A stretch of DNA of 64,000 nt from the NCBI GenBank assembly GCA_951804945.1, contig OX638154.1, positions 99,758,001 through 99,822,000 on the forward strand. Reading direction: 5' to 3'. Position numbers and translations under genes: made by a program. Of this stretch, positions 27,505 to 60,220 are shown in pieces; position 1 is the first letter of the stretch; each line of letters starts with the position of its first letter. The notes under the pieces are model-generated. The model ran no database searches. It saw only the letters and a list, made by a program, of their open reading frames with translations, and was not told the DNA's origin. This DNA is from Podarcis cretensis (Eukaryota).

Positions 27505-28334
27505 AACTTCAAAACGACCTTGACAGATTAGAGAACTGGGCCAAAACAAACAAGATGAACTTTAACAGGGAGAAATGTAAAGTATTGCACTTGGGCAAAA
27601 AAAAAAAATGAGAGGCACAAATACAAGATGGGTGACACCTGGCTTGAGAGCAGTACATGTGAAAAGGATCTAGGAGCCTTGGTTGACCACAAACTTGACA
27701 TGAGCCAACAGTGTGATGCAGCAGCTAAAAAAGCCAATGCAATTCTGGGCTGCATCAATAGGAGTATTGCATCTAGATCAAGGGAAGTAATAGTGCCACT
27801 GTATTCTGCTCTGGTCAGACCTCACCTGGAGTACTGTGTCCAGTTCTGGGCACCACAGTTCAAGAAGGACACTGACAAACTGGAACGTGTCCAGAGGAGG
27901 GCAACCAAAATGGTCAAAGGCCTGGAAACGATGCCTTATGAGGAACGGCTAAGGGAGCTGGGCATGTTTAGCCTGGAGAAGAGGAGGTTAAGGGGTGATA
28001 TGATAGCCATGTTCAAATATATAAAAGGATGTCACATAGAGGAGGGAGAAAGGTTGTTTTCTGCTGCTCCAGAGAAGCGGACACGGAGCAATGGATCCAA
28101 ACTACAAGAAAGAAGATTCCACCTAAACATTAGGAAGAACTTCCTGACAGTAAGAGCTGTTTGACAGTGGAATTTGCTGCCAAGGAGTGTGGTGGAGTCT
28201 CCTTCTTTGGAGGTCTTTAAGCAGAGGCTTGACAACCATATGTCAGGAGTGCTCTGATGGTGTTTCCTGCTTGGCAGGGGGTTGGACTCGATGGCCCTTG
28301 TGGTCTCTTCCAACTCTATGATTCTATGATTCTA
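27505..28334 (+). mobile_element. Young CR1 LINE 3' fragment
   Basis: [30 protein letters not shown], then ORF 27628..28164 with [11 protein letters not shown]; frameshift in the A-run near 27600, CGA>TGA stop at 28162; (ATTCTATG)n tail. Confidence 0.96.
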
Positions 28335-43678: not shown

Positions 43679-45402
43679 GTGAGGCAAACGAGCGTGAAAT
43701 CTTTCCACTTTAGTTTTTGGAAGTGGGCTTCATTTTGCAGTCTTCTGTCTCTCCCTGACACTTGTTTTTGTGTCAGGTGCACTGTGGGCCAGCTGCTGAG
43801 CAGCCCCTTGTTGTGTGAGAGAAGAAGCTAAGCTGAAGACTCTTTCTCTTTATGAGCATGTGGAATGTCTTGGGAACTGGGCAGTAACGTTTTCAGCATG
43901 TGAGCGATAATGGAGGATGGGACCAGATCTTCGTCATCTAAGCTTCCTTCCTTAGGTCTGGCCCATGTTTCTCCTCCAAAGCCTTCTAGTTAGAGGTAGA
44001 TGGTGAAGCGCACACTGGGGTCGCCTAGCAACTGTGAGCTTGCTCATGTATTATCTGTATCCTGATTGGGTGTCTGGGCTGAGATATGGTCACACCCGGT
44101 AATCGGTCAGTGATGAGGACAAATGTCCTATCAGTCTAGTGGATAAGTCCACTATAGGTCTTTTAGTAAGAAGGTGACAAGTGGATGAATGTTGATCCCC
44201 AGTAAATTTAGATTCATTCAGGGACTTTTGAAAATGCTGTCCTTAGTGTTTTACTTCAATCTCCAGATGGAATATACATTCAAATGAGACATGTTTATTC
44301 CAATACTTTTTATATGCTTCCTAGGGCAATGGGGAGGGGCTTTGGTTCAGTAGTAGAACATCTGCTTTGCATACAGAAGATATTGAGTTTCATTCCTTAG
44401 CATCTCCAGGCATGATTGGGAATGTCTCCAGTCTAAAATCCTGAAGAGTGAAAAGAGCTAGATAGAGCAACGGTCTTACTCTATATAAGGCAGTTGTTGC
44501 AGTGGAAGAAACTGAGGGTGGGGATGGTAATTTTTAAAATAATTGTTTTACTAAATTGTTTTAGATCTTGAGCTAGAAACAGAAATTCAGCTTTCAAAGT
44601 ATATACAGTACATCATGCAAGTATATACAGTCCCTGTGTGCACTTGATCAACAGTGTTGGTGTTAATTCTTCACTTTTTGACGTTAGCAGGGTGGTTTCT
44701 GTGATGTAATTCTCTCAGCATATCTACCAGTGTCTTCAAAATTAATTCTATGCATTTGACACTTTTCATAAACTCACTGTGGGCTAACATGTCAGAGTTC
44801 TTAACTTTGAGTTAGTACCACTCATATGTTTGGCCACACATTTATATCAGTTTTACACCAGTGTTCCTATGGTGCCTTCCTTTAAGGAATCCTGTGAATT
44901 GTAGTTTGAAGAGAATGATGAGAATTTCTTATAAATCCCTAAACATTCATATATAGCCACGTAGAGAACAAGAATGAAGACAACTATAATTTGTTATATA
45001 TAACAATTGTTTATAGACAAGGGGTGATTCCACACTAGATGTTTCAGTGTGGGACTGCCACGCTCTGTTCATTCACTTTCTATTTCATTCATTCATTTTA
45101 TTTGTATACCACTTTTCAACACTCTGGGAATGGCTTCAACAGGCCTGCTAAACCAGGTGAGAGTAGCCAAGGGGTCTCAAATCCCCACTGAGTTAGGGAC
45201 CTGCATGCAAAGACAGGCTCCGGTGGATTGAGTGGACAAGACTAATGGCGCCTCCAACAGTCAAGAAGGTGGTTTCTGTGTGTGCTGTATAGAGGGAAGT
45301 GAGCAAATGGGGCGCATCCACCTAGGAGAAAGAAAACTCTGACCTTCAACCTCTGCTGCTTTGCAGGATATTTTTGGGAGAAGAAAAGGCTAAGGAGTAA
45401 AC

Positions 45403-46447
45403 TATGGTTACCAGATGTCCCTGTTTCCTGGGGACAGTCCCCGGATTTACAAATCTGTCCCTGGACAAAATACGTCCCTGGAATGTCCCCGGATTTCATA
45501 TAATGTCCCCGGATTTATATTTTAAGTGTTGTAGATTTATTAGTAGGGAATGAATGTTGCATGATTGGTTCAACGGCACAAGACACAATATATAGGGACT
45601 TCCAGGAAGGCAAAATGGCAGGTGCCACGGCAGCGAGCAGCTTCTGAAGCCAGCCAGAGCCAACTGCACTATCAGGCTGGCTCCAGGCTGCTAAGACTGC
45701 CGCTGCCGCTGCCGAGGGGGAACCGGGGATGCCCGGCATGTCAACTGGGGGAACCGCTGACACACACACCCAATGACCCAAATTGAGCTGGGAGCGAGAG
45801 TGTCCGGCCACCTGGACGACTGCCCAGTGACGCTCCGGAGCCGACACAGGGAGAAGGAGGAAAGGAGAAGGAGAAGGGAGAGAGAGAGAGAGAGGAAGGA
45901 GAAAAAAAGAGGGGAGCCCTGACCTTGCCATGCTGCTGCCGCCACCACTGAGGAAGAGAGGTAGCAGAGCACCGGGAGGGCAAGGACACATGGCCGAGCC
46001 GAGGCCTGACCGAGCCTACACCATGGCAGGTAGCGCTCCAAGAGATGGTTCCACGGAGCAATGGTTCCAAACTACAAGAAAGAAGATTCCACCTAAACAT
46101 TAGGAAGAACTTCCTGACAGTAAGAGCTGTTCGACAGTGGAATTTGCTGCCAAGGAGTGTGGTGGAGTCTCCTTCTTTGGAGGTCTTTAAGCAGAGGCTT
46201 GACAACCATATGTCAGGAGTGCTCTGATGGTGTTTCCTGCTTGGCAGGGGGTTGGACTCGATGGCCCTTGTGGTCTCTTCCAACTCTATGATTCTAGATC
46301 ATGCCGGGGCCCAGAGGAAGGCCACGTGACAGAGGAGACCCAGAAGAGAACATATTACTTCTTAATTTTTTAAAAAAAGATTTTTTTGTTTTAAAAAAAA
46401 ATTAAAAATTTGTCCCCGGATTATTTGAAAAAAATCTGGTAACCTTA
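45403..46447. mobile_element. hAT non-autonomous transposon with GC-rich interior
   Basis: TIR TATGGTTACCAGAT / ATCTGGTAACCTTA; perfect 8-bp TSD GAGTAAAC (45395-402, 46448-55); subterminal TGTCCCCGGA repeats. Confidence 0.9.
46052..46296 (+). mobile_element. Short CR1 3' end nested inside the hAT element
   Basis: Two mismatches in ~245 nt versus 28082-28326. Confidence 0.95.
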
Positions 46448-47155
46448 GAGTAAACCCTGCACAAATCTGGAGTGGAGTCCCTAAGACGGTTGGCTGGCAC
46501 CTTGCACCCCTCCTTCCAGCAACTCCTGGAGTCCAGCATCTTGCTCTGCTTTCCTTTGGACCACATCGGTGAGGCTGAGAGGGGGTCTTGTCATCTGGGC
46601 AGCCCAAGACCTCCAGACACACTACCTAGGCTTGCATCCTGGGGAAGTCACTTCAGTGCTGGTAACTCAGTGGTTTGACGTCACCCCCAGAGGCACACTC
46701 CATTATCTCTTGAGATAGCCAGATGCTAACAACATACATGGCACATACATGTGCAAATCTACACACACACATCCATACACAGCTGCCACAGGAAAAAATA
46801 GATCTCAGGGGAGAGGAAATTATAACCAACACTGAACTCATAGAGCATGAGGAATCATAGATGCCAGTAGTGAACTTATTATCCCAAATGTAGATGTTTA
46901 TCTAGCCCACATGGCACCATCCATGGTAAAGAGGGAAGTATCAGCCTTGGGAAGACCTCAAGGTTTGCAGAAGTGCAAAAAATATTTAGGGGGAAAACTG
47001 ATATATTTAGCAATGGTAATGTGAGGAGGGAGTACAGTCCAACCCAGTGAAGAGTGAACTTGCTGTGTGGTTACAGAACACTGACTTCTTTTGTGTTCTA
47101 GAGTTGGAATGTTTGCAAATGGGAGGTCTAAGATGACCAATCTGGACAGGGAACA

Positions 47156-47518
47156 CAGACCCTTTGTGTCACTATTTTCCAGAGACAGTCCTGGATTTAG
47201 AGAAGCCATCCTGGTTTCTGATTTGGTCCTGGAATGTCCTGCTTTTTCTTAGGACATCACTATTTTCATCAGAGAAATGTTGGAGGGTATGGTAGGATGT
47301 CCCTGTTTTCATCAGAGGGTATGGAGTTATGTAACCCCTGAGCCAAGGAGATAACTAGACAGCCCTCTATAGTTTTATTATGTTTTTATATACATGTTGG
47401 AAGCCGCCAAGAGTGGCTGGGGCACCCCCATCAGATGAGTGGGGCAAAAATGACAAGGTATGGTCATTTTGTATGGTTTCATGTCCCTATTTTCATCAGA
47501 GAAATTTTGGAGGGAATG
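47156..47518. mobile_element. Non-autonomous DNA transposon, TIR CA(G/T)ACCCTCCAA type, 6-bp TSD
   Basis: CAGACCCT...TTGGAGGGAATG flanked by GGAACA/GGAGCA; inverted sister copy at 58236-58998. Confidence 0.72.
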
Positions 47519-50132
47519 GGAGCAAGCTCTTGAAGCAAGAAGCAGGGAAAACAGGCGTGAATAGGAAGGAGTGGAAAAGGGGACAGAATAAGGGGCTTAA
47601 CGCTTAATATTATCTAAACTAGGAAAGAACCTTGAAATGACAGGAGTTACCTTTTCTTTTTGCCCACCCAACACAAACAAAGGAGCTTGTGACCACCTTC
47701 AGTTGTTTTACTACATCAAAATTCAGTTGGTTTAAGTTCGGATGTTCCAGGTGCACTGAAGTGAAAGTAGCACTAAATAACAGCCTGCTTGTGTCTGACA
47801 TCTTTGGCTTTGACAGCTTCAGGTCTATAAATGCATCAGTCCTTCTCACTGAATGAGCAGAAGGGAAAGCACTGACCCCAGAACACTGCCCCGCATTAAA
47901 AAATGGAAGGTAAAAAAGGCAGCATTCCCACTTGCCTGCCAAGATGTTTAGTGCCTTAGTAGCAATGTGGGAAGCTGACGGTGTAGTACCCAATTCATCT
48001 TTCCACATTATCCCCCAAAAAAGGGGGGGGGGGGAATAAGGCAAGTTCCTTTACATCTTACTTCAGAAGGCTCTTTTCCCATAGCGGCAGAGCAGGCACG
48101 GCTGATCCCCTTCTTTTGGAGCTTGGCTGCAAGGCCTGAGAACAAAATGGTGATCCCTCATTCCACATACAGAAGCCAAGCATACTGGCCGTTGCATCTT
48201 ACTTCAGTCTTAGTTCAGCACTGGAGGCAGGACATTGTCATCTGCTGCACCTGAGGGCAGAGGGCTGGCTGAGGAGGTGCAGGTCACATCCAGCTCTGTC
48301 CTCCAACACATTGCTGCTGACCTGTCCCCTCCCAGCACCTGTATCTTGCTTACCCTTCCAGGATTAATTTGGTCCCCAATTCTTCCTTTCTCTCAAATCC
48401 ATCAGTTTATATTCACCTCATTCTGAGAGACCAGCGGGGAGGGGAGTCTGTCGCAGCAGCAGGGGGAGACACGTGTCTCTTCACCAGCCTCTCGGCCTCA
48501 CTTCTCTCCTGCTCCACCTTCTGAGTCTGAAATTCCCTCCGCCACAGACTCTTCTTGCTCACTAAGCCCTGTTACCCCTTCAGTTTCTGACACCTCCCCC
48601 CCCCCCCAGTCTTTCCTCTCTTTCTTCTCCATGTGACTGCTCCTTGTTGTCCCACCACCACTCCCTGGGCTCTGAGCCTTCCTTCCCTTGGGGTTCCCCA
48701 GCTGGTTCCTCTGTGTCCAACCAGTCCCGGACATATCTAAAGTTTTATTGTGAAAGCCCATCTCAGCACTGAGAATCTCATTCAGAAAAGCTATGCGAAG
48801 AAACTTCACAGGCATCAGCACTGGGAAGAAGTGTGACATTACCTTGTGTAAACACATGCAGTTACAGACACGCTTATCGTGATGTAATTGTCTCCAAAGA
48901 GGCTATTGACAGACACAAAGCATTGAGAAAACAACAGCAGCAGCAGAATCAAGGCAAGACTGGATGATGTAATCTGTAAGCAAGTTGAGCTATTGGCTAT
49001 GAAAATTGCTATGCGGTGCTAATTACATGTGTTGGTCAATCTAATCAGTAGTCATTGCCATATTAGGCTTTTTTAAGTTAGGAAAAATAAATGTGCAAAG
49101 AGTGTCAAGGTCTTTCTCTCACTGGGAGGGTAAATCTGTATCTGAATTTCACCACTCCGGAAGGAAAGTGAAGACTCACAGGACTAAATGCTCTTTCATA
49201 CAAAAGAATTCCTTCTACATAGGAAAATAACAGACGGTACTAGATAAGTTTAAAGAAGCCTTCAGTCATGGGATTCTCTGCATCTGCAGGCTGAATTGGT
49301 GCAACTCTTTCCCCCCACAATATATTTACCACCCCCTCAGTGAGAACTAAGATGCTGTGGTTTAAAGTGGTCTTTATATAAAATAGCAACTGAGACACAA
49401 CATGAGAGTCAGTTAATTTAGATATGACACAGAATTTAACAAAGTAAGCTTTGCTATGGTTTAGCTTGACAGCTACATTTACGAAATGTGGTTTGTGATT
49501 GGCTGGCAAATCAGAAAGCTGGTTTTGAGCTGGCATTGCAAACCATGATTTTCTTATTTATGGCTTGGTGTGATGTCTGAATGGACCAATGCTGAACAGA
49601 TTAATCTGTGATTAGTGCACTGCAAACCATCGTTTAGAATGCTATCTGTGAACTTAGTCAATTTCTTCATCTTGTGTAAATACCCACCTCCCTTAAACAG
49701 AAGGAAGACAAAGACCAGTGTTCTTTCTTGGTATTTGTTTAGATTCAGTAATCATTACTTTTGCCTTAGGCATAAGCTTTGAAGCCAAAGTCCCCCTCTC
49801 CCCACACCAAATAACCACCTAGAGAGCGTTTGTGTTCCACCAGCAAGTGGGGGAAGAGCTGCAGCAGATATTGATGTGGGGAGGGGGAGTCTACTTTCTC
49901 TGTCCTGTACTAGTCCACCACTGAAAGTCCCTCGCTCCAAACACTGCTTTTCCCTAACAGAAGTAGCCTTCTTCTTCACACACACACCCCAAGCTCCTAA
50001 GAAGGGAGAGAATCTCTGGTCCAGTCAGGGTGGAAGAATGAGGAGAAGTTTTCCCACTCTTGCTTGCTGCCTTCCCAGTAAGAACTGTCTCACCCGTGCC
50101 AGTAATTATTTAAGAAAACAATATGCATAGCC

Positions 50133-50807
50133 TGTTGGCATCTGTCTGTCTCAAGAGACAATGGAGTATGCTTCTGGGGGTGAAATCATACCACTGTGTT
50201 ACCAGCCCTGGTGACCTCCCCGGGGCATAAGCCTGGGCAGTGTGTCTAGAGGTCCTGGCCCACCCAGATGACAAGGAACACCGCCCCCCCGATGTGGTCC
50301 AAAGGAAAGCAGAGCAATACATTTCACACCAGCTTGGCTGCAGGAGTTGCCAGAAGGAGGCATACAAGATGCCATCCAACTGACTTGGGGACTCCATTCC
50401 AGATTTGTGTAGGGTTTACTCCTTAGCCTTTTCTTCTCCCAAAATATCCCACAAAGCAGCAGAGGTTTAAGGTCAGAGTTTTCTTTCTCCTAGATGGGCC
50501 ACCTTCCCAGGTGGATGAGCCTCACCTGCTCCTCACTTCCCTCTACACAGCACATTTAGAAACTGCCTTCTTGACTGTTAGACCCATTGGTCTCACCCTC
50601 CCAATCCACTTTGCCTGCAGGGGAAGTCCCTAACTCACTGAGGGTTTGAGACCCATCAGCTACTCTCACAAGTGGTATCACCTCTGGTGGGATACATGTC
50701 ATGCTCTTTCTGGGGTAGTTTATCCACCTATAGTCTCCAGCCTGCACTCAGCTCTCACCTGTGGCTCCTTGCCGCTCTCAGCATGCAGCAGTGCTCACAC
50801 TCCAGGA
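50133..50807 (-). mobile_element. ORF-less RTE-derived retroposon, copy B, with inverted 5' segment (50672-50807)
   Basis: Homologous to copy A; carries the uninterrupted site GGGTTTACTCCTTAGCC near 50412-50428. Confidence 0.75.
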
Positions 50808-52980
50808 ATACATAGCTATATGCTCCATAATTAAGGAAACATCTAGTTCAGCCCTCAGTAACCTGTGTAACGTAGACACTTGTCTCAATCACACACCACA
50901 GTTTTCAGTGTATGCCTAAAAAGGCAATGCCCTACTTGGGTTTAAGGTTTAAGAAGCCGCACCACGTCTTCCTGTCCTCTGAGTCATTTTGAGACATGCT
51001 GAGATGATTTTTTTTTTTAAAATAGAATGTGGAGGAACACACACCCAGAATTCCTTGCAGCATGCTATTTGAGCCTGAGATACTGGGAAAGCAGGGAATG
51101 ACCCACTTCTGCGGTAATGGGAGGGCTCCCACACAAGCTAACTTCAGGCGTGGCTAGATGGGGCATTGAAGGAGCCTGGGAAAGCAAAGGAGGCTGTTGA
51201 CGGGCACATGGGCTGAGGCTCTGCCTGGGGGGCGGGGGGTGCTGATTAAATTCCAGGTGCTTCTGAGTGAGCGTTGAAGGGTATGAGATCAGCTCTACTT
51301 GGCTTGGCAGCCTTGGCAGACCCAGCATCCGGCTGATGCCTTGGAAGCTCTCAGGTGCTCGGAATGCAAGTGTCGTGCCTGAACCTGATCGTATGTGTTG
51401 GCAGCCAAGCTGAGGATTAGCAGGAGCAGCTGTGGAGAGCAGCTCTTGGTGTTTCATAGACTAGCAAAAGCACTGTAACACCCATGATAATTCTGCAAAC
51501 TTGGTAGGTGACGGAGATGTGATTCTTAAGTATATGGTTCTCCGTAGTATTCATTACAAAGAGGTTGGCTATGAAAATTTCCCTCTGCTTTCTTCTGGGC
51601 TTGTTGGTACTCTGCACACAAACATGGGGGGGGGGGGAGAGGCAATCTAAATCCTGTGCTTGGAAAACAGAAATTCAGTACTAAAAATAAAGAGCATTAA
51701 TAAAATGTTGGTAGATCCATAAAATTCACCTTAACGCCTTAGGGCACAGCTACACTGCCAACCTGTACTGGTTTATACTTGTTCATGTTTCACGGCTTCT
51801 CCCAAATAGCTCTGGGAAACGTAGTTTGGCCCCCTGCAGCCTTCTAGCAGGCCTTGCAGCTCCGCCTTTCCTGGTACATTAGCTTAGGGAAGGAAATCCT
51901 TCAGGTACAGGCTAAACACTTTGCTTTCTAATGGTTGCTTCTCTCTGGGTTTGCTGCTGTTTTGTTCGTGGGGTCCAGATGTTATTATAGAGGGTCCTGA
52001 GTGTAGGAAGAGAGAGAAATTCAAGTCCGTGAATTCTCCAAGGTCTAAAGATAGAATATCCACAGTGCCTGGGAGTCTCTCCTAGGGGAGCCAGATTTTC
52101 CTTGTTACAGAGCAGGTCATGGGGCTCACTCTCCTTTCTTAGATAAGTCCTGTCAATGGAAGAAACTGGGAAACAAGTTGCTTGCCATAGAAACAGGGGG
52201 GCTTTTGATAGGGGACTGAGGGAACACCTCCCCTGTTGTTTCAGCATGAGAATCTTTTTGAATACAGTATAAATATAAAATTCATGTTCTGTTTTATTTT
52301 AACCCAGATTGATTAGTGCATATAGATTACAGTATTTTAAAATGTAGTCCTGCTGCAACAGCTGTGGAGAATGACACCATCGGTCCACTGGCGCACTTTT
52401 CAAAGTACCAGAGCAGGCTGCCGACCCCTCTCCTCCTGGCACAGCTGCTTCTGGTTTTTCCTCATCAGCTACTTTCTCTTTCTGCTTCTGAGGCATCTAA
52501 TCATAAGCTTGCATTTTTATTAAAGCTTATATGTTTAATCAGGGCTTGTATTTTAAGAATGAGTTTAAAAATGTTCTGTTTCATGCCAGGCAGAAGACCA
52601 TGCCTAAAAACCTTGGCAAGATATTTTTACTCCTAGACAAGGGGCCCCCCTGATTTATAGCAGAAAACAATTCTCAAAGTCGTAAAAACGGAATTACAGG
52701 CTGACAGCCAAGGTTACACTGACCCTACAAATTAAGGGTGGATAAATAGTAAAATGAGCCATATCTTCTTCCTAAGGTTAAGAAGGTCAAGAGCAGTGAA
52801 AAAGCATCTAGCTGGCAGAAACAGAACATTTTCTGGGAAATCTTTTCTAAAGCTGTTTGTTTCTTAAACTAAGATCCTTTTAAGATTTCTTTTCCTTTTA
52901 AAAGGTTATTTATGTATTAAATATATTAGTTTAAATATAATTATGCAAAGGATTTAAGAAATGCTAGATTCTTATTTCAT

Positions 52981-53112
52981 ATAGTTGGAAGAGATCACAG
53001 GGGCCATCAGCCATCAGCCCCCCCCCCCTTGCCAGACAGGAGACGCCATCGAGCACTCCTGATATATGGTTGTCAGGCCTTTTGTTTAGAAACCTTCAAA
53101 TGAAGGAGATCT
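52981..53112 (-). mobile_element. CR1 3' end fragment (a second short CR1 tail lies at about 54158-54240)
   Basis: Reverse complement resembles the 3' UTR at 28200-28320. Confidence 0.7.
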
Positions 53113-53244
53113 CTCAATGTTGATGTGAACTCAATCCTTGACATGCATAAGATAAAAATTCAAGATTAATTATCTGTTTTGGAAGGCAATAGGGCAAGGA
53201 GGGCAAGAGGTGAGCTGGTAATTAAGATTCCTTGTTGAGACACA

Positions 53245-53602
53245 TGTAAGATATATTACTACTTATTTGTCATTTATAGATAGAAGAATATATAGCTTTT
53301 TGATTTCCATAAAAGGGCAAGAAGGAAATGGGTGTATCTTTTGTGATTGGCTCTAGCAAACAGCCAATAGGAATTTCAACCAGGCTGATTGGACAGAGGC
53401 AGCCACAGGAGGAGCAAGGGGGCTGGATTAAGGAAATATAAGTGCTGGCCAGAATGGCAAGAGGCCAGGCCAGAGCTTGGTAACCATATACCACTGTGCC
53501 TCATATTTATTTGTCTGACAAATAAATTACTATTTTAATTTCTCTATTGCTGCGTTGAATATTTCATTCCAGCTAAGCGTTAACCACAAGCAGGGTGCTA
53601 CA
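53245..53602 (+). mobile_element. Possible solo LTR
   Basis: TGTA...TACA ends, three CCAAT/ATTGG boxes, TATAAG at 53437, AATAAA at 53521; no clean TSD. Confidence 0.5.
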
Positions 53603-54542
53603 CTTCCAGGCCAAGACACTTTAAAGACTAACATATGTATTGGAACAGAGACCCCTTTGTAGGATGCAATGCCAACACTGCTTTTGGATATCAGCACCAA
53701 CTTGCTATTTTTATTTTTAAATTTTATGATAGGCTGTTATTGTAAAATATGGTATAGACATTTTTATAATAAACAAAATGTATAGGAAGAGATGGAAAGT
53801 GGGATTTGTTCTCTGGACAATGCTTCTTTGCTGAGCTTGTTCATGACTCTAACCTTGAGTTATGAGTTGTTGGTTTTGCTTATGCATATGCTGTGAGGTG
53901 GGATTAATGATATTACTAATAAGAGTGACAAGAGTTTCCTGGTTCCATATTAATTCCTCATCTGTGTTTTTTTCCTTCCATCACTAATATTCTTGCTGTT
54001 TTAGCTCCCATTTCATTTTGGCTGAAAGGGAGTTGAATTGCTGGTGTTAAATTGAAAGGGCAATGGAGCAGAGTGAGAGAAATGAAGACTAAGAGAAGGC
54101 ATGGCAGTGCCTTAAGCCCAACCTACTCCATTTGAAATAACCACAGGGCACAGTTCTTATAGAATGGTAAAGTTGGAAAGGGATCCTGAGGGCCATCTAG
54201 TCCAACCCCCTGCAAGACAGGAATCTCAGCCAAAGCATTCACATTAACTAAAGCATCTTAGGTTGCAGTGGTTTGCTTTTAAAAACCCAAATATAGAAAA
54301 CTAGCATGCTGCGGAAGCTGGCCTGTCAACACTGGAAACAATGGACCAGCCAGTTTTCTGTGATGAGGGAATCAGGCTAATGTTGCATGACTAGTCACTG
54401 CAGCTTGCGTAGCTTGGATCTGAGCTTATCAACAGGGTGGCCTTTAAATGTATATCATCAAGTAAAAATGGCGAGCCAATTTCTGGAACTGCCAAATGGG
54501 TTGTTGTTCTTGAATGGTGTGAACTATTCTCTTTGCTTTCAG

Positions 54543-54731
54543 CCTGCCATTGCAATGGGAAATCCAGGCAGTGCATGTTCGACATGGAGCTGCTCAGACG
54601 AACAGGAAATGGATACCGGTGCCTCAACTGTGCCGAAAACACAGAGGGAAATAATTGTGAGCGGTGTAAGGAGGGCTTCTACCGCCAGGAACCTCGAGGA
54701 CGTTGTGTATCCTGCAGCTGCAACCCCAAAG
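54543..54731 (+). CDS. LAMC2: LAMC2 exon 2 ([63 protein letters not shown])
   Basis: tttcag| acceptor, G|gtatgc donor; 189 nt; [17 protein letters not shown] is characteristic of gamma-2. Confidence 0.96.
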
Positions 54732-56383
54732 GTATGCAGGGACTGAGGGGCAGGTGGGAAAGCCCCTCACCCCCAATCTTATGGGACTGCAGTGTCTGTT
54801 GAGGTTCTACTGCTGCATATCTCTGTCTACACTCAACCCAAATATGTTGGCAAAATAAGCCAAATGTTCTGGCACCCTTAAAGCCACTCACTACGTGGAG
54901 AATTGGGGTTCCAGTGCATACCCTGAGTTGGGTTCCTCTGAATGAGATCAGGGAGAGGAGAAGCCAAAAGCAGCCGTTCTCCTGAACACAATCAAGGGGC
55001 ACTTCCAGACTGTTACTGTTTTCAGGTGGAAATCCAGCTTGCACAATCATAGTTGGCTAAGAAGTCTTGTGCAACAAACTGCTTGCCTGAAAGATTGGAC
55101 TTTCTGCAATAAGGAAAGTGAAGGTGGAATCCACTGGGAAATGTGGAGTGGCACTTGCTTTGCCATAACATCATCTAACCACCCTGCGAATAAGTGAAGA
55201 TGAATGCTCAATACATTACCTGTTTGGAAGCATGCCAGGTCTGTAGGACTCCAAAAACTTGTTTTTGTTATTGTGGAATGGGGACCCGAAGGTACGCCTC
55301 AAGGCCTCAGTGAGGTTTATAATGCTAACCACAATGCACTTCTATCCTATTGTTGTTTTCAATTAGATACCACATTCTGATGTGTTTTTCCCAAAACCAG
55401 CTTCAATCTGAATGTGAAGCAAAACAAAACAACCTAGCTGTGTTCTAAGCCGGTAATGCGTACAGAGCCTACGTAGCTTGAATTTTCTTGGTTATTTGGG
55501 CCAGAAGGAAAAATAGTCAGCATCAGCCTCCCTTTTGGCAAAGTTTACTATGTAGTCACTTTGTGCATTGATTGTTCCTGTGGAGCAGAAATAGCACTAG
55601 ATATCTTTGGTCAGCTGTGAGGCAAAAATGGTGCCAGTGATGTACATCTGCTAAAGTGTTACATCTAGAGATCTGCATAATATAATGTGCTGATCCCAGC
55701 ACAGGTTTAGCATATCTTAGAAATATGAATTTCTTCTATCTAAAGAACAAAGCTCTGCCTCTCCTCCATTCCAGCCTAGCTGTTTTCCTAGAGGGAATCA
55801 TTAGCACATCCTTTCTCCTCAGCTGCTTTAGAACAAAGAGCTAGTAATACACCCAAAATGGAGACCTGTAATACAATTATTTCTCATGTGATCTAAGTTA
55901 AATACTTCATGACAGATCCAGCGGAGATACAGCCCTACTTAAACCATTGGCTATTAGGCTCTCTGCATCTCCAATGTTTAGCTCAGAGGAATTGAGCTTT
56001 TAGCAGTACACATCCATACATATACAGAGTTATTTAATTGTACGTTGAACTATCAAATAACTTAACAGGTTTTGTCTGTGCAAATAGAAGATTGCTGCTT
56101 TTTGCTTCCCCTTATTTGAGCTGTATGAACTTTAGGACAGCCTTTCTAGGTCCTTTTCCCTTCTGGAAGAAAGCAATGGAGACTTAGGGCCAAAAGTAAT
56201 TGTGATGCTGATCATGCCACTTGCAGGCATGTCAGTTGATTTTTATCAAGACCACAGGATGCAGGGACATTTAGTCCTTTCCTCTCCTCCTGTGGTCCTG
56301 ACAAAAGTAGTCTGGTCCTGCTATTACCTCTGGGAAAGAAGCCTTCATTGGCAGCAGTGGATACTTCCCTCCAGGGGCTCATG

Positions 56384-56418
<35 letters not shown>

Positions 56419-56457
56419 CGCTCGTGCGTGCGTGCGTGACAGAAAGAGAGAGAGAGT
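56384..56457. repeat. (GT)n(GC)n(GTGC)n(GA)n compound microsatellite
   Basis: Read directly. Confidence 0.95.
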
Positions 56458-57014
56458 GAGTTGTGGGGAGTGATTTTCATCAGACCTGAAGCAAAGGAGG
56501 AAAGTGTTACCCATCTCCTCCCCACATACCAGTCCCAACAAAAATCCCCAACAAAAATTTATTAATTTTGTTCTAAAAACTGATGTGATTACAAGTTTAG
56601 CATCATTTCTAGTTTGGCCCTTGCTTTGCCTTTGTAATAATCAGTTTATTTACAAATTTATAGATTGGGTAGATATTTTGGGGGCAGAGGAACCTCCAAG
56701 CAATAGAGTCTACCAATTCAAACCTGAACCATTGCCACTTTTCTGGCAATATTCCACAAAACCAGGTTTCAGCCTATCTCATACTGCAGAAGAGCATCAT
56801 ATTTGTACATGCCAAAGCAACTTTTTAGACGAAGTGTGCCTGAGTAGTTCAGCAATGTGCCAGTCATGACAAACCAAGCAGGAGAGGAACTTTGCACAAT
56901 GGAACTGAATGACTACTGCAGCAACTCTCCTTGAGTTTCCTTGGAATTGCTATAAACCTGATGAGAATCATAAATATTGACCCGATTGCTGTCTCTACTA
57001 CTCCTTCTTCACAG

Positions 57015-57150
57015 GTTCTTTCAGTGTACAGTGTGATAACCAGGGACGATGCCACTGCAAACCTGGTGTGACAGGTGATAAATGTGACCGATGCCAGGAC
57101 AATTTCCATTCCTTCTCAGAATCTGGCTGCAGAGCTGCTGGGCAAATACA
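57015..57150 (+). CDS. LAMC2: LAMC2 exon 3 ([46 protein letters not shown])
   Basis: tcacag| acceptor, CA|gtaagt donor; 136 nt; paralogous to LAMC1 exon 6. Confidence 0.95.
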
Positions 57151-57240
57151 GTAAGTGCTGTCGGGTCGGTGGAGCTGTTTGTTGCTGGCTAATGTGTTCC
57201 AGTGGAGCTTCATTTGAAAATGGTCCTTTGGTTTTCTCAG

Positions 57241-57333
57241 GAATTGTGATTGTGATCCAGCTGGCAGCACGGGCCAGTGTGTTTCAGGACGTTGCATCTG
57301 CAAGGCAGCTGCTGAAGGAGAGCGATGTAGCAG
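57241..57333 (+). CDS. LAMC2: LAMC2 exon 4 ([31 protein letters not shown])
   Basis: tctcag| acceptor, AG|gtgtgt donor; 93 nt; preceded by a 90-nt intron. Confidence 0.93.
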
Positions 57334-57861
57334 GTGTGTGCACAAAGATTGTGTGGCTAAATGTTTTGATGGTGCTCAGAGTTGTCATGATCAAGGAATC
57401 CACTTGGTAGCTCAAGTTGCTCTTTCACTTAGCATACAAACCCAACAGAAATGTAGCTTTCTCTCTGACTCAGAAATGGAGGCTATGTGGATTGAGTTCA
57501 GTGTGCAAGCATGGAATGTGGAATCTAGTGCCAGTGTTTTGGATACTGAGAACTTCAGTTTCCACTGAGAAAGCAATGTGTCTTCTGTAATATTTGGAAA
57601 TGTAGGTCTGTGGTGTCTGGTTGGCCAGAAGAGAGCTTCAGAAGCCAGGAAGGGGGCTTTCAGTCAGTGCACAGCTATACAACTTTCAGCCTTCGTCCTT
57701 GCACTTCCCCACCCATCCTCCTGCCTCTTCTGCCCACTTAACCCCAATCTCCATTCCATTCGTATTATTCCTTCCATTTCATTCTTGCCTTTTGCCGTGT
57801 GCTGGTTCAAACATTATTATATATATATTTTTGCATTTGTATTAGTTGCTTTGGCATGTAT

Positions 57862-58023
57862 GGGGTGTTAAGGGAGGGGTAGTACCTCTGGAGGATACGT
57901 CACACTCCTTCTTGGTCCACCTGTGATTCCCAGCTTGCACTCACCTCTCACCTGTGGCTTCTAGAAGCTATCAGCATGCGTCAGGAACAACTTTGACTGA
58001 CCAGCTAAACCAGGTGAGGGTAG
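57862..58023 (+). mobile_element. 5' end fragment of the RTE-derived retroposon, copy C
   Basis: Shares GCACTCA.CTCTCACCTGTGGCT..TCAGCATGC with copy B and GCTAAACCAGGTGAG.GTAG with copy A. Confidence 0.7.
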
Positions 58024-58235
58024 GTTTGGTCCTGCTCATACCAAACCCACAGACACTAGACATGCTGACCAGAGGGGAAAGCTACCGGTAGTTGACGGCA
58101 AACCCAATCTAAGCCAGTTCAGTGCATGGTGGGCTAGTAAAACAGGCTGACTTTGGAATGTGGGCACTGCTATGCCATTAGTTGTGGTAGTGATGATGAC
58201 TGGAATTTTCTGTGCTAATCTGGATAGGAGCATAG

Positions 58236-58998
58236 CATGCCCTCCAACATTTCTTTGATGAAAATAGGGACGTCCCATTCCATAATGATAATTTTAATAT
58301 TTATACCCCACACATCTTACGGGGTTGCCCCAGCCATTCTGGGCAGCATTCAATATATATAAAACATTAAATGTTAAAAAAACCTTCCCTATACAGGATT
58401 GCCTTTATGAAGCTCGGGGGTCAGATAATTCCATACCCTCCAACATTTCCCCAATGAAAATAAAGGTAAAGGTAAAGGTACCCCTGCCCGTACGGGCCAG
58501 TCTTGACAGACTCTGGGGTTGTGCGCCCATCTCACTTAAGAGGCCAGGGGCCAGCGCTGTCCGGAGACACTTCCGGGTCACGTGGCCAGCGTGACATCGC
58601 TGCTCTGGCAAGCCAGAGCCGCACACGGAAACGCCGTTTACCTTCCCGCTGGTAAGCGGTCCCTATTTATCTACTTGCACCTGGAGGTGCTTTCGAACTG
58701 CTAGGTTGGCAGGCGCTGGGACCGAGCAGCGGGAGTGCACCCCGCCGCAGGGATTCGAACCGCCGACCTTTCGATCGGCAAGCCCTAGGCGCTGAGGCTT
58801 TAACCCACAGCGCCACCTGCGTCCCGAGGTGCCTTTATGAAGCTCGGGGGTCAGATAATTCCATACCCTCCAACATTTCCCCAATGAAAATAGGGACGTT
58901 CTAAGGGAAAGCAGGACATTCCAGGATCAAATCAGAAACTAAGACAGCTTCTCTAAATCAGGGACGTCCCTGGAAAATTGGGACACTTGAAGGGTCTG
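58236..58998. mobile_element. Non-autonomous DNA transposon (6-bp TSD family) interrupted by a Sauria SINE
   Basis: CATGCCCTCCAA ... TTGAAGGGTCTG with perfect GCATAG on both sides (58230-35, 58999-59004). Confidence 0.8.
58463..58825 (-). mobile_element. Full-length, CpG-intact (young) Sauria SINE
   Basis: (AAAGGT)n tail, B-box GGTTCGAATCCC on the minus strand, head GGGACGCAGGTGGCGCTG; 63-bp flanking duplication. Confidence 0.93.
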
Positions 58999-59293
58999 GC
59001 ATAGTGGTACCCCACAATGGGCCACTGACAAATAATTAATGGAAAGTAAAAAAGCATAACACTTTTATTTCTGATTTAATGGCAGCCCTGACTCACGTCA
59101 CTGTTTGAGTCCATGCTGAGGCCAAAATGGCATGTGCACAAGTTGCACTGAGCTCAGCACATCACCTTACATTAAAAAGCACATCCAGCCCACATTTAAA
59201 TCTCATGACACCCCACAAAGAATCCTGTGAACTGCAGTTTGTTGCTGAGAATTATAGCTCTGTGTGGGAAACTACAGTTCCTCGGATGCATTT

Positions 59294-59846
59294 GGGTGTG
59301 GGTGGCGCTGTAGTCTAAACCACTGAGCCTCTTGGGCTTGCTGATCAGAAGGTCGGCGGTTCAAATCCCTGTGACGGGCAGTGGCGTAGCGTGGGGGGTG
59401 CAGGGGGGGCCGGCCGCACTGGGCGCAACATCTGGGGTTAGGGCAAATCCACGGTTTAGGGGGCGCAAATCCACGGGTTAGGGGGCGCAAATTACTTGCC
59501 TTGCCCCGGGTGCTGACAACCCACGCTACGCCACTGGTGACGGGGTGAGCTCCCGTTCCTCGGTCCCAGCTCCTGCCAACCTAGCAGTTCGAAAGCACGT
59601 CAAAGTGCAAGTAGATAAATAGGTACCACTGTGATGGGAAGGTAAAGGCATTTCCGTGTGCTCTGATTTCTGTCATGATGTTCCGTTGCACCAGAAGTGG
59701 TTTAGTCATGCTGGCCACATGACCCAGAAAACTGTCTGTGGACAAACGTCGGCTCCCTCAGCCTGAAAGCAAGATGAGCGCCACAACCCCATAGTTGCCT
59801 TTGACTGGATTTAACCAACCAGGGGTCCTTAACTTTTTTTACTTTA
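59294..59846 (+). mobile_element. Sauria SINE interrupted by a hAT MITE
   Basis: GGTGGCGCTGTAGTCTAAACCACTGAGCC head; body resumes at 59545. Confidence 0.88.
59379..59536. mobile_element. 158-bp hAT MITE
   Basis: Perfect 17-bp TIR CAGTGGCGTAGCGTGGG; perfect 8-bp TSD GTGACGGG; internal GGCGCAA repeats. Confidence 0.92.
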
Positions 59847-60220
59847 ACTGTGTGTTTGATGTGCTTTAAATGAATAGTGTGTATCTACTCTCAAATCCAC
59901 AATTTCACCAGATTATAGCACAGGCTAGAATCCTGTTTCTGTACCTTCTGGAGCAGTTACCTCGGTGCCTTTGTGTGTGTGGTGAGTGCCAGTCTTTCTG
60001 TCATGAAGTCATCACTTGAACAAGAATGGTAGCACAGGATTTGTAGTAATGGCTGACATCAGAGCCATCAAGTTTTTATTGACTGGAGGGTGCAGCTATC
60101 CTGTCACAACAGATAAAGCAGAGGTATCCGGATTGGAAATTCAGTATGTCAGCTTTCTGTGTGTGAATATGAATGCACAAGAGAATAATTGTGTGGTGTG
60201 TTAATTTATCTCTTGCACAG

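Follow-up and report, generated by a model that had tools for sequence, protein, structure and literature searches.

Within a 64,000-nucleotide (nt) stretch of the Podarcis cretensis genome (contig OX638154.1, positions 99,758,001 to 99,822,000; hereafter the window), three pieces, designated copies A, B and C, are decayed copies of one retroelement that lacks an open reading frame (ORF) and derives from an RTE retrotransposon. The first 193 nt of this non-autonomous family match the fold of a ribozyme like that of hepatitis delta virus (HDV), and this ribozyme is likely (probability about 0.7, as judged from sequence) to have freed the RNA of the master element by cutting just before nt 1. 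HDV-like ribozymes occur at the 5' ends of RTE, R2, R4 and L1Tc/Ingi retrotransposons (excerpts of PMC5786205, PMC6765202 and PMC3774820), and their role in release is treated in two of these sources (PMC6765202, PMC3774820). Ribozymes in RTEs and bipartite derivatives of RTEs are both known kinds. It is about as likely as not that, in a vertebrate genome, an RTE and its short derivatives spread an HDV-like ribozyme that was active and carried an added helix in loop L3, next to the catalytic core.

On the favored reading, the master RNA would be co-transcribed from a host promoter as read-through and would cleave itself before G1, using P1 (nt 1-7 with nt 149-155) and the catalytic C at nt 178. 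The cut RNA would then be copied in trans by the reverse transcriptase (RT) of an autonomous partner, via a shared 3' end. In this lineage, L3 would have acquired 21 nt behind its U20-G25 core, forming a predicted 6-bp hairpin and leaving P3 and P1.1 intact, and the 5' strand of P1 would have been duplicated, thereby moving the start 9 nt upstream.

Ribozyme fold of the consensus head

The family consensus, built from 60 loci of the same genome (loci are given L numbers), is 742 bp long with an (AAC)n tail, and the fold was read after CpG restoration in its head. P1 has 7 bp (nt 1-7, GGGGTGT, with nt 149-155, ACACCCC); the 96-nt J1/2 contains a long predicted helix; P2 has 10-11 bp with one bulge (nt 104-114 with nt 182-193); and P3 has 3 bp (GGC/GCC), followed by the 7-nt P1' strand ACACCCC. 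L3, at 28 nt, consists of UCCUAG, AA, the predicted 6-bp hairpin and a G. P1.1 is CC/GG, after which come GAA(A), P4 and the J4/2 sequence GCUAA. The helix order P1, P2, P3, P1.1, P4 is that of the nested double pseudoknot, and the consensus passes an HDV descriptor. Thus the topology that a first-pass annotation had pieced together from the three window copies holds in the consensus, but the P1 and P3 registers are shifted. The TGG/TCA originally proposed as P3 rests on mutations of copy B, is off by one base, and is ruled out by the family's GGC/GCC; the J1/2 of ~77 nt applies to copy C only, owing to deletions there. The extended L3 suspected in that annotation is real at the level of the consensus.

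The positions of the U-G reverse wobble are kept in the UCCUAG of L3, as is the GG after P1' for P1.1; the head follows the HDV layout, and the U20-G25 numbering is that of HDV. The catalytic C lies in J4/2 and is kept in 65 of 73 heads, and a 22-nt motif spanning P3', P1' and P1.1' is exact in six copies. The core as a whole is kept in 4/73 heads, with P1 starting from nt 1 in L034 and from nt 10 in L047, L008 and L037.

With L3 relaxed, the descriptor matches the consensus in two P1 registers, at nt 1 and nt 10, and matches none of 3,000 dinucleotide shuffles; there is no match on the reverse strand of the consensus or in the element body. When the L3 insert is limited to 3 nt the consensus is not matched, and the L3 of 7-8 nt typical for HDV-like ribozymes was not found here. 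That length is best described as typical; it is not proven essential. For one R2 element, a deviating spacing of L3 is described (excerpts of PMC6765202 and PMC3774820). An Rfam scan of window positions 44000-60000, with E values up to 10, returned no ribozyme family.

The head resembles the ribozymes of other retrotransposons in its 5'-end position, its nested double-pseudoknot order, its long structured J1/2, its U-G core, its CC/GG P1.1 and the position of the catalytic C after P4. Unlike them, it has a 28-nt L3 with a predicted 6-bp hairpin and two tandem, identical P1 5' strands. No helix inserted into L3 was found in the literature searched, outside of which lay Ruminski 2011, Kojima 2011, Webb and Luptak 2011, Repbase and Dfam; the comparison literature also includes parts of PMC4035085 and PMC4870747.

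Related RTE elements and the L3 insert

An alignment of 18 protein relatives was used to fetch 80 metagenome loci, of which 27 were scanned, those matching from close to the start of the ORF and having at least 360 nt upstream. The HDV descriptor matched the forward strand in three of these 27 upstream regions, 825-970 nt before the ORF, and matched 0/27 reverse strands and 0/540 shuffles. The ribozymes of these related RTEs are of the canonical HDV-like form and occupy the corresponding place. A fourth ribozyme, that of L321, was fitted by hand, its J1/2 of 279 nt being above the descriptor limit; L327 contains the core, and no P1 partner was found for it. The P1 and P3 sequences differ among the heads of the relatives, with pairing retained.

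The closest head, L322, aligns end to end with that of the family and has identical P1, P3 and J4/2 sequences. It differs by compensatory changes in P2 (C-G to G-C) and P4 (G-C to C-G), contains a single GGGGTGT, and has a 7-nt L3, which appears as a 21-nt gap relative to the family. Stem covariation, proposed at the outset as a check, is therefore seen across related RTEs in P1, P2, P3 and P4, but not among the genomic copies. A bulge or mismatch directly after the P2 pair that adjoins P3 recurs in four of the five heads compared (L317, L321, L322 and this family).

Stretches of two metagenome loci (L316:136-437; L322:1856-2034 and 2138-2406) are 77-81% identical to the element over ~270-310 nt of non-coding 5' untranslated region (UTR), a likeness that hints at horizontal transfer or strong constraint. 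Six RTE relatives were found in prokaryotic assemblies and none in viral contigs.

In HDV-like ribozymes, L3 counts as the segment that is both short and tight. In HDV structures this insertion point lies on the side turned from the core, a placement on which the literature search returned no result. This head and L322, with and without the 21-nt insert and otherwise nearly alike in their cores, form a natural pair. If the ribozyme was indeed active, the insert would mark a new peripheral-domain site in HDV-like ribozymes, and vertebrate RTE ribozymes would be under-counted, since descriptors with a short L3 are blind to them. Tolerance of the insert would call for wider descriptors and would make L3 available as a place to graft domains. 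The family would also supply a vertebrate case for the ribozyme-defined 5' end that may underlie the bipartite derivatives of RTE, R2 and Ingi, a question raised in excerpts of PMC5786205. The use of RTE UTRs for gene insertion, treated in part of PMC13708176, lends practical interest to 5' processing.

Element start and competing explanations

Family homology begins at window position 57853, 9 nt upstream of the GGGGTG at 57862, with a further GGGGTGT. Among 52 heads, the 12 columns 5' of this start are unconserved, no base exceeding 25/52, and G occupies nt 1 in 33 heads as against two at position -1. Target-site duplications scoring at least 8 flank 13 of 36 full-length copies (null 0/105); in a larger set of 50 copies that overlaps the first, duplications of 8-12 bp were found for 16, compared with 7/292 mismatched pairings. 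Seven of the 16 starts mapped in this way lie at nt 0-2. Going by the onset of conservation and the duplications, the ends are ragged and the element start lies at window position 57853 instead of 57862. The original expectation of a start at GGGGTG thus stands as to a sharp beginning at a P1-type strand with nothing conserved upstream, but not as to position. Family members do extend 5' of the GGGGTG at 57862, an outcome that had been named as counting against the fold; because the extra 9 nt open with an identical P1 strand, the predicted cut site shifts and the model does not fail.

Several observations weigh against a ribozyme active in this family. Position 24 of L3 is A and J4/2 reads CUAA, unlike the descriptor excerpted from PMC6326823, which has C at L3 position 24 and CRRA in J4/2; CUAA is common to L320, L321 and L322, and the A to L322. 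Under nested folding, the pairing probability of P1 is 0 and a structure without it is preferred; this alternative reaches -85.6 kcal/mol, compared with -72.0 and a further -16.8 from P2 when no pseudoknot penalty is counted, which makes misfolding plausible. Stem covariation is absent among 48 genomic copies (0.104 vs 0.111 shuffled), and conservation is flat over the parts of the head (0.90-0.94), as is expected of dead copies decaying neutrally from one master. Starts are ragged, with 5/16 at nt 5-10 and 4/16 upstream. Raw RNA reads from four runs, compared with L034 at 85% likeness, derive from many copies and both strands, and show no pile-up of read starts at nt 1 at a depth of ~0-3 reads; no RNA record is listed for window positions 57700-58300. 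The descriptor found no match in 24/27 upstream regions of relatives, many of them truncated or distant. Finally, L3 has 7 nt in all five relatives compared (L317, L320, L321, L322, L327) against 28 nt here, and most simply this lineage gained the 21 nt; the insert would then be lineage-specific.

These last two lengths bear on the alternative that the fold is a relic, active in the RTE ancestor and crippled by the L3 insert, with the 5' end set by an internal promoter comparable to Pr77 of L1Tc, which is both promoter and ribozyme (excerpts of PMC3383444). The short L3 of all five relatives and the competing structure predicted by nested folding favor it. So does the form of the L3 hairpin, an 18-nt palindrome with one interrupting A and a GCAUGC loop, which points to fold-back copying as its source and could have arisen in this way without selection; its pattern has no matches in the metagenome contigs. 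A relic is nevertheless judged unlikely: in the master, neither P1 (7/7 pairs) nor P1.1 (both pairs) lost any pairing, P3, U20 and G25 were retained together with the catalytic C, all of this holds for the autonomous form as well as for the long and the short one, and the family start coincides with the G that opens a perfect P1 strand. In CPEB3 crystals a palindromic L3 forms dimers (excerpts of bioRxiv 10.1101/2022.09.22.508989), and there is a slight chance that the palindromic hairpin here might pair two RNAs.

A second alternative, considerably less probable than a relic, is that both P1 strands were used, yielding RNAs that begin at nt 1 or nt 10, of which nt 10, the site of the first-pass annotation, would be the older register. 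The descriptor accepts both registers, the single GGGGTGT of L322 precedes a purine run like that after the second repeat, and in L052 a duplication of 9 bp without mismatches ends at nt 10. However, only 1/16 mapped starts lies at nt 10, P1 from nt 10 costs 8 kcal/mol (-63.8 vs -72.0 in a constrained fold), and single cases are explained by ordinary 5' truncation. That the helices are a chance arrangement in a G/C-rich repeat, or the head of a short interspersed element (SINE) transcribed by RNA polymerase III (Pol III), is scarcely credible: the earlier fold was indeed assembled from three decayed copies and the descriptor was relaxed to admit a long L3, but the failure of the shuffles to match, the presence in related RTEs of homologous ribozymes whose stems differ in sequence, the lack of a B box and the absence of any Rfam match, to tRNA or otherwise, in the three copies all oppose it, and the compensatory changes of the relatives refute it unless L322 is misassembled.

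Family, parent element and copies in the window

First-look searches of the genome's own DNA gave 1,519 candidates with the head of copy C, 2,569 with the body of copy A and 1,874 with the 3' end, 40 being scored for each. Mean identity to the consensus is 86.9% (68 alignments >500 nt), and a longer form of ~890 bp carries two additional segments. The 19-nt motif of J4/2 and P2' occurs exactly 469 times in the genome (reversed control, 0) and is exact in 22/73 heads, or in 6/27 among heads outside the two head-query picks; from the count and the fraction retained, some 1,600-2,100 ribozyme heads are estimated for the genome. As had been proposed, the family is multi-copy and ORF-less, its longest ATG-initiated frame having 83 aa, and lacks the B box of a Pol III promoter, none lying in the first 300 nt; the A-box has loose matches only, at nt 194 and 256. 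A mid-UTR pattern aimed at sister families returned only 25 copies of this same family.

The autonomous RTE partner called for in the first-pass annotation was found in the same genome as an old RTE-type long interspersed nuclear element (LINE). One copy (L060/L206) runs on into an RT fragment; a search with this fragment placed the last ~100 nt of the element downstream, on the same strand, in 14/29 other RT loci, two further loci that match on the opposite strand being left out of this count; and L243 holds UTR, endonuclease, RT and 3' end. The 5' part of the element lies upstream in 19 of 30 loci picked by their ORF-proximal UTR, four of which extend as far as the ribozyme and contain the L3 hairpin. 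The parent's UTR, the RT loci and the shared 3' end thus bear out both the RTE origin and the joining of a 5' UTR to the 3' end. Among full-length proteins, the closest relatives each consist of one endonuclease-RT ORF of ~1,040 aa, 59-65% identical over the query, without RNase H among the domains listed for them. By eye, the UTR resembles positions 134-237 of RTE-12_AMi, a 104-nt piece to which that comparison is confined, and the conserved RTE 5' UTR domain (excerpts of the PMC5786205 supplement). Protein similarity and this UTR match would place the partner in the RTE clade.

A mid-UTR conserved domain, a long 5' UTR, a single ORF and a short 3' UTR are shared with the group of RTE-12_AMi, RTE-3_BF and AviRTE; unlike this head, by eye, are the consensus 5' ends of AviRTE (first ~400 nt per record) (excerpts of PMC5786205 and PMC4844689). 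Vingi, a clade with short bipartite derivatives likewise, and in which the 5' piece of Vingi-2_Gav ends in GCTAA, was considered as parent and rejected because protein relatives and UTR indicate an RTE-type partner. A search for the partner with PF14529 did not return the parent; the families it did return we take to be CR1- and L2-like. A very young LINE family has intact 1,114-aa frames and copies >99% identical (L099, L101, L108-L110, L114-L120); beside it stands a 1,121-aa sister family, unrelated to the RTE-derived element.

The clades named as having bipartite derivatives are RTE, Ingi, Vingi and R2, and RTE also belongs to those with 5' ribozymes (excerpts of PMC5786205). Like the bipartite non-autonomous LINEs compared (RTESINE1/2, WALLSI3, Bov-A, RIME, NARTc and R2 internal-deletion elements; excerpts of PMC5786205 and PMC3414825), the element joins a 5' UTR to the parent 3' end, keeps the parent 5' end, and has neither an ORF nor a Pol III head. 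Unlike them, it is long (742 and ~890 bp), because the parent UTR is ~1 kb, and has 5' inversions. Inversions of the twin-priming type occur in further copies of the RTE family (L014, L186, L197, L265, L268, L082); in both copy B and L082 the inverted part extends to nt 160, and the sequence continues from nt 187-189. Such inversions in human cells occur almost only with L1 (excerpts of PMC4245944). Predicted pairing between the 5' UTR segment that precedes the junction and the 3' end that follows it would close a hairpin there, both in the consensus (element nt 652-700) and in copy B (window 50134-50236, minus strand), with 46628-46730 (plus strand) as the corresponding interval in copy A; the best 3'-end duplex falls on the segment homologous to this helix in only 2/7 relatives (L316, L321).

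Within the window, the motifs cited in the first-pass annotation were all located: GGGGTG at 57862, CTCTCACCTG at 57945 and GCTAAAC-CAGGTGAGGG at 58004-58020 in copy C, those of copy B at 50752-50803, and those of copy A at 45120-45163, including C45148. Copies A and B share a 3' end point, element nt 742 corresponding to 46730 and 50134, respectively. Coordinates are collected below.

Table 1. Element copies and other features, in window coordinates
Feature	Position	Strand	Details
Copy A, element nt 149-455, 5'-truncated	45119..45402	+	ribozyme 3' third and 5' UTR body; 78% to consensus
Copy A ribozyme remnant	45119..45163	+	P1' 45119-45125; P1.1' GG 45126-45127; P4; J4/2 with catalytic-C position 45148; P2' 45152-45163
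Insertion splitting copy A	45403..46447	.	1,045 bp; terminal inverted repeats; 8-bp duplication GAGTAAAC
Copy A second part, element nt 448-742	46448..46730	+	then short AAC tail; 81% to consensus
Copy B body, element nt 187-742	50134..50669	-	83% to consensus
Copy B inverted head, element nt 23-160	50671..50808	+	83% to consensus
Copy B left target-site duplication	50808..50816	-	partner 50123-50131; 8/9 bases identical
Laminin-EGF exon of plus-strand host gene	54521..54748	+	Pfam PF00053, E 2.9e-8; laminin and netrin matches
Copy C, element nt 1-196 only	57853..58023	+	77% to consensus over nt 5-196
Copy C first P1 5' strand, decayed	57853..57859	+	first G = family 5' end, predicted cut site
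Copy C second P1 5' strand, same sequence	57862..57868	+	P1 of the first-pass annotation; closes J1/2 helix in predicted fold
Copy C P2, P3 and L3 region	57945..57982	+	P2 5' strand 57945-57955; P3 5' strand 57956-57958; L3 core 57959-57964
Copy C L3 hairpin insert, beginning only	57965..57982	+	
Copy C J4/2 and P2'	58004..58020	+	catalytic-C position 58005

The second P1 strand of copy C corresponds to the alternative P1 register, and alignment to the consensus reveals a 14-nt deletion that takes out P3' and P1'. The head of copy B contains J1/2, P2, the P3 5' strand, L3 with a decayed hairpin, a broken P3' and P1'; self-comparison of the window shows that this copy is not collinear, its head lying on the plus strand and its body on the minus strand, an arrangement that is twin-priming-like. 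As noted at first, no window copy is complete: 0/3 pass the HDV descriptor, even with one P1 mismatch allowed. Copy A is without the 5' two thirds of the head, copy C lacks P3' and P1', and the head of copy B is inverted and ends at nt 160 with P3' broken, so that none of them can fold and all are predicted not to cut.

For the host locus, the copies are inert debris. Copies A and C lie in sense orientation to the gene with the laminin-EGF exon, which is presumably an early exon of LAMC2. The insertion in copy A is later than that copy and appears to be a hAT-like DNA transposon; within it lies what we take to be a CR1-like 3' fragment (46052-46296), which is 99% identical to window positions 28082-28326. 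A tRNA-like match at 44336-44408 (plus strand), whose 29 bits equal the Rfam gathering score, is probably a SINE head or a pseudogene.

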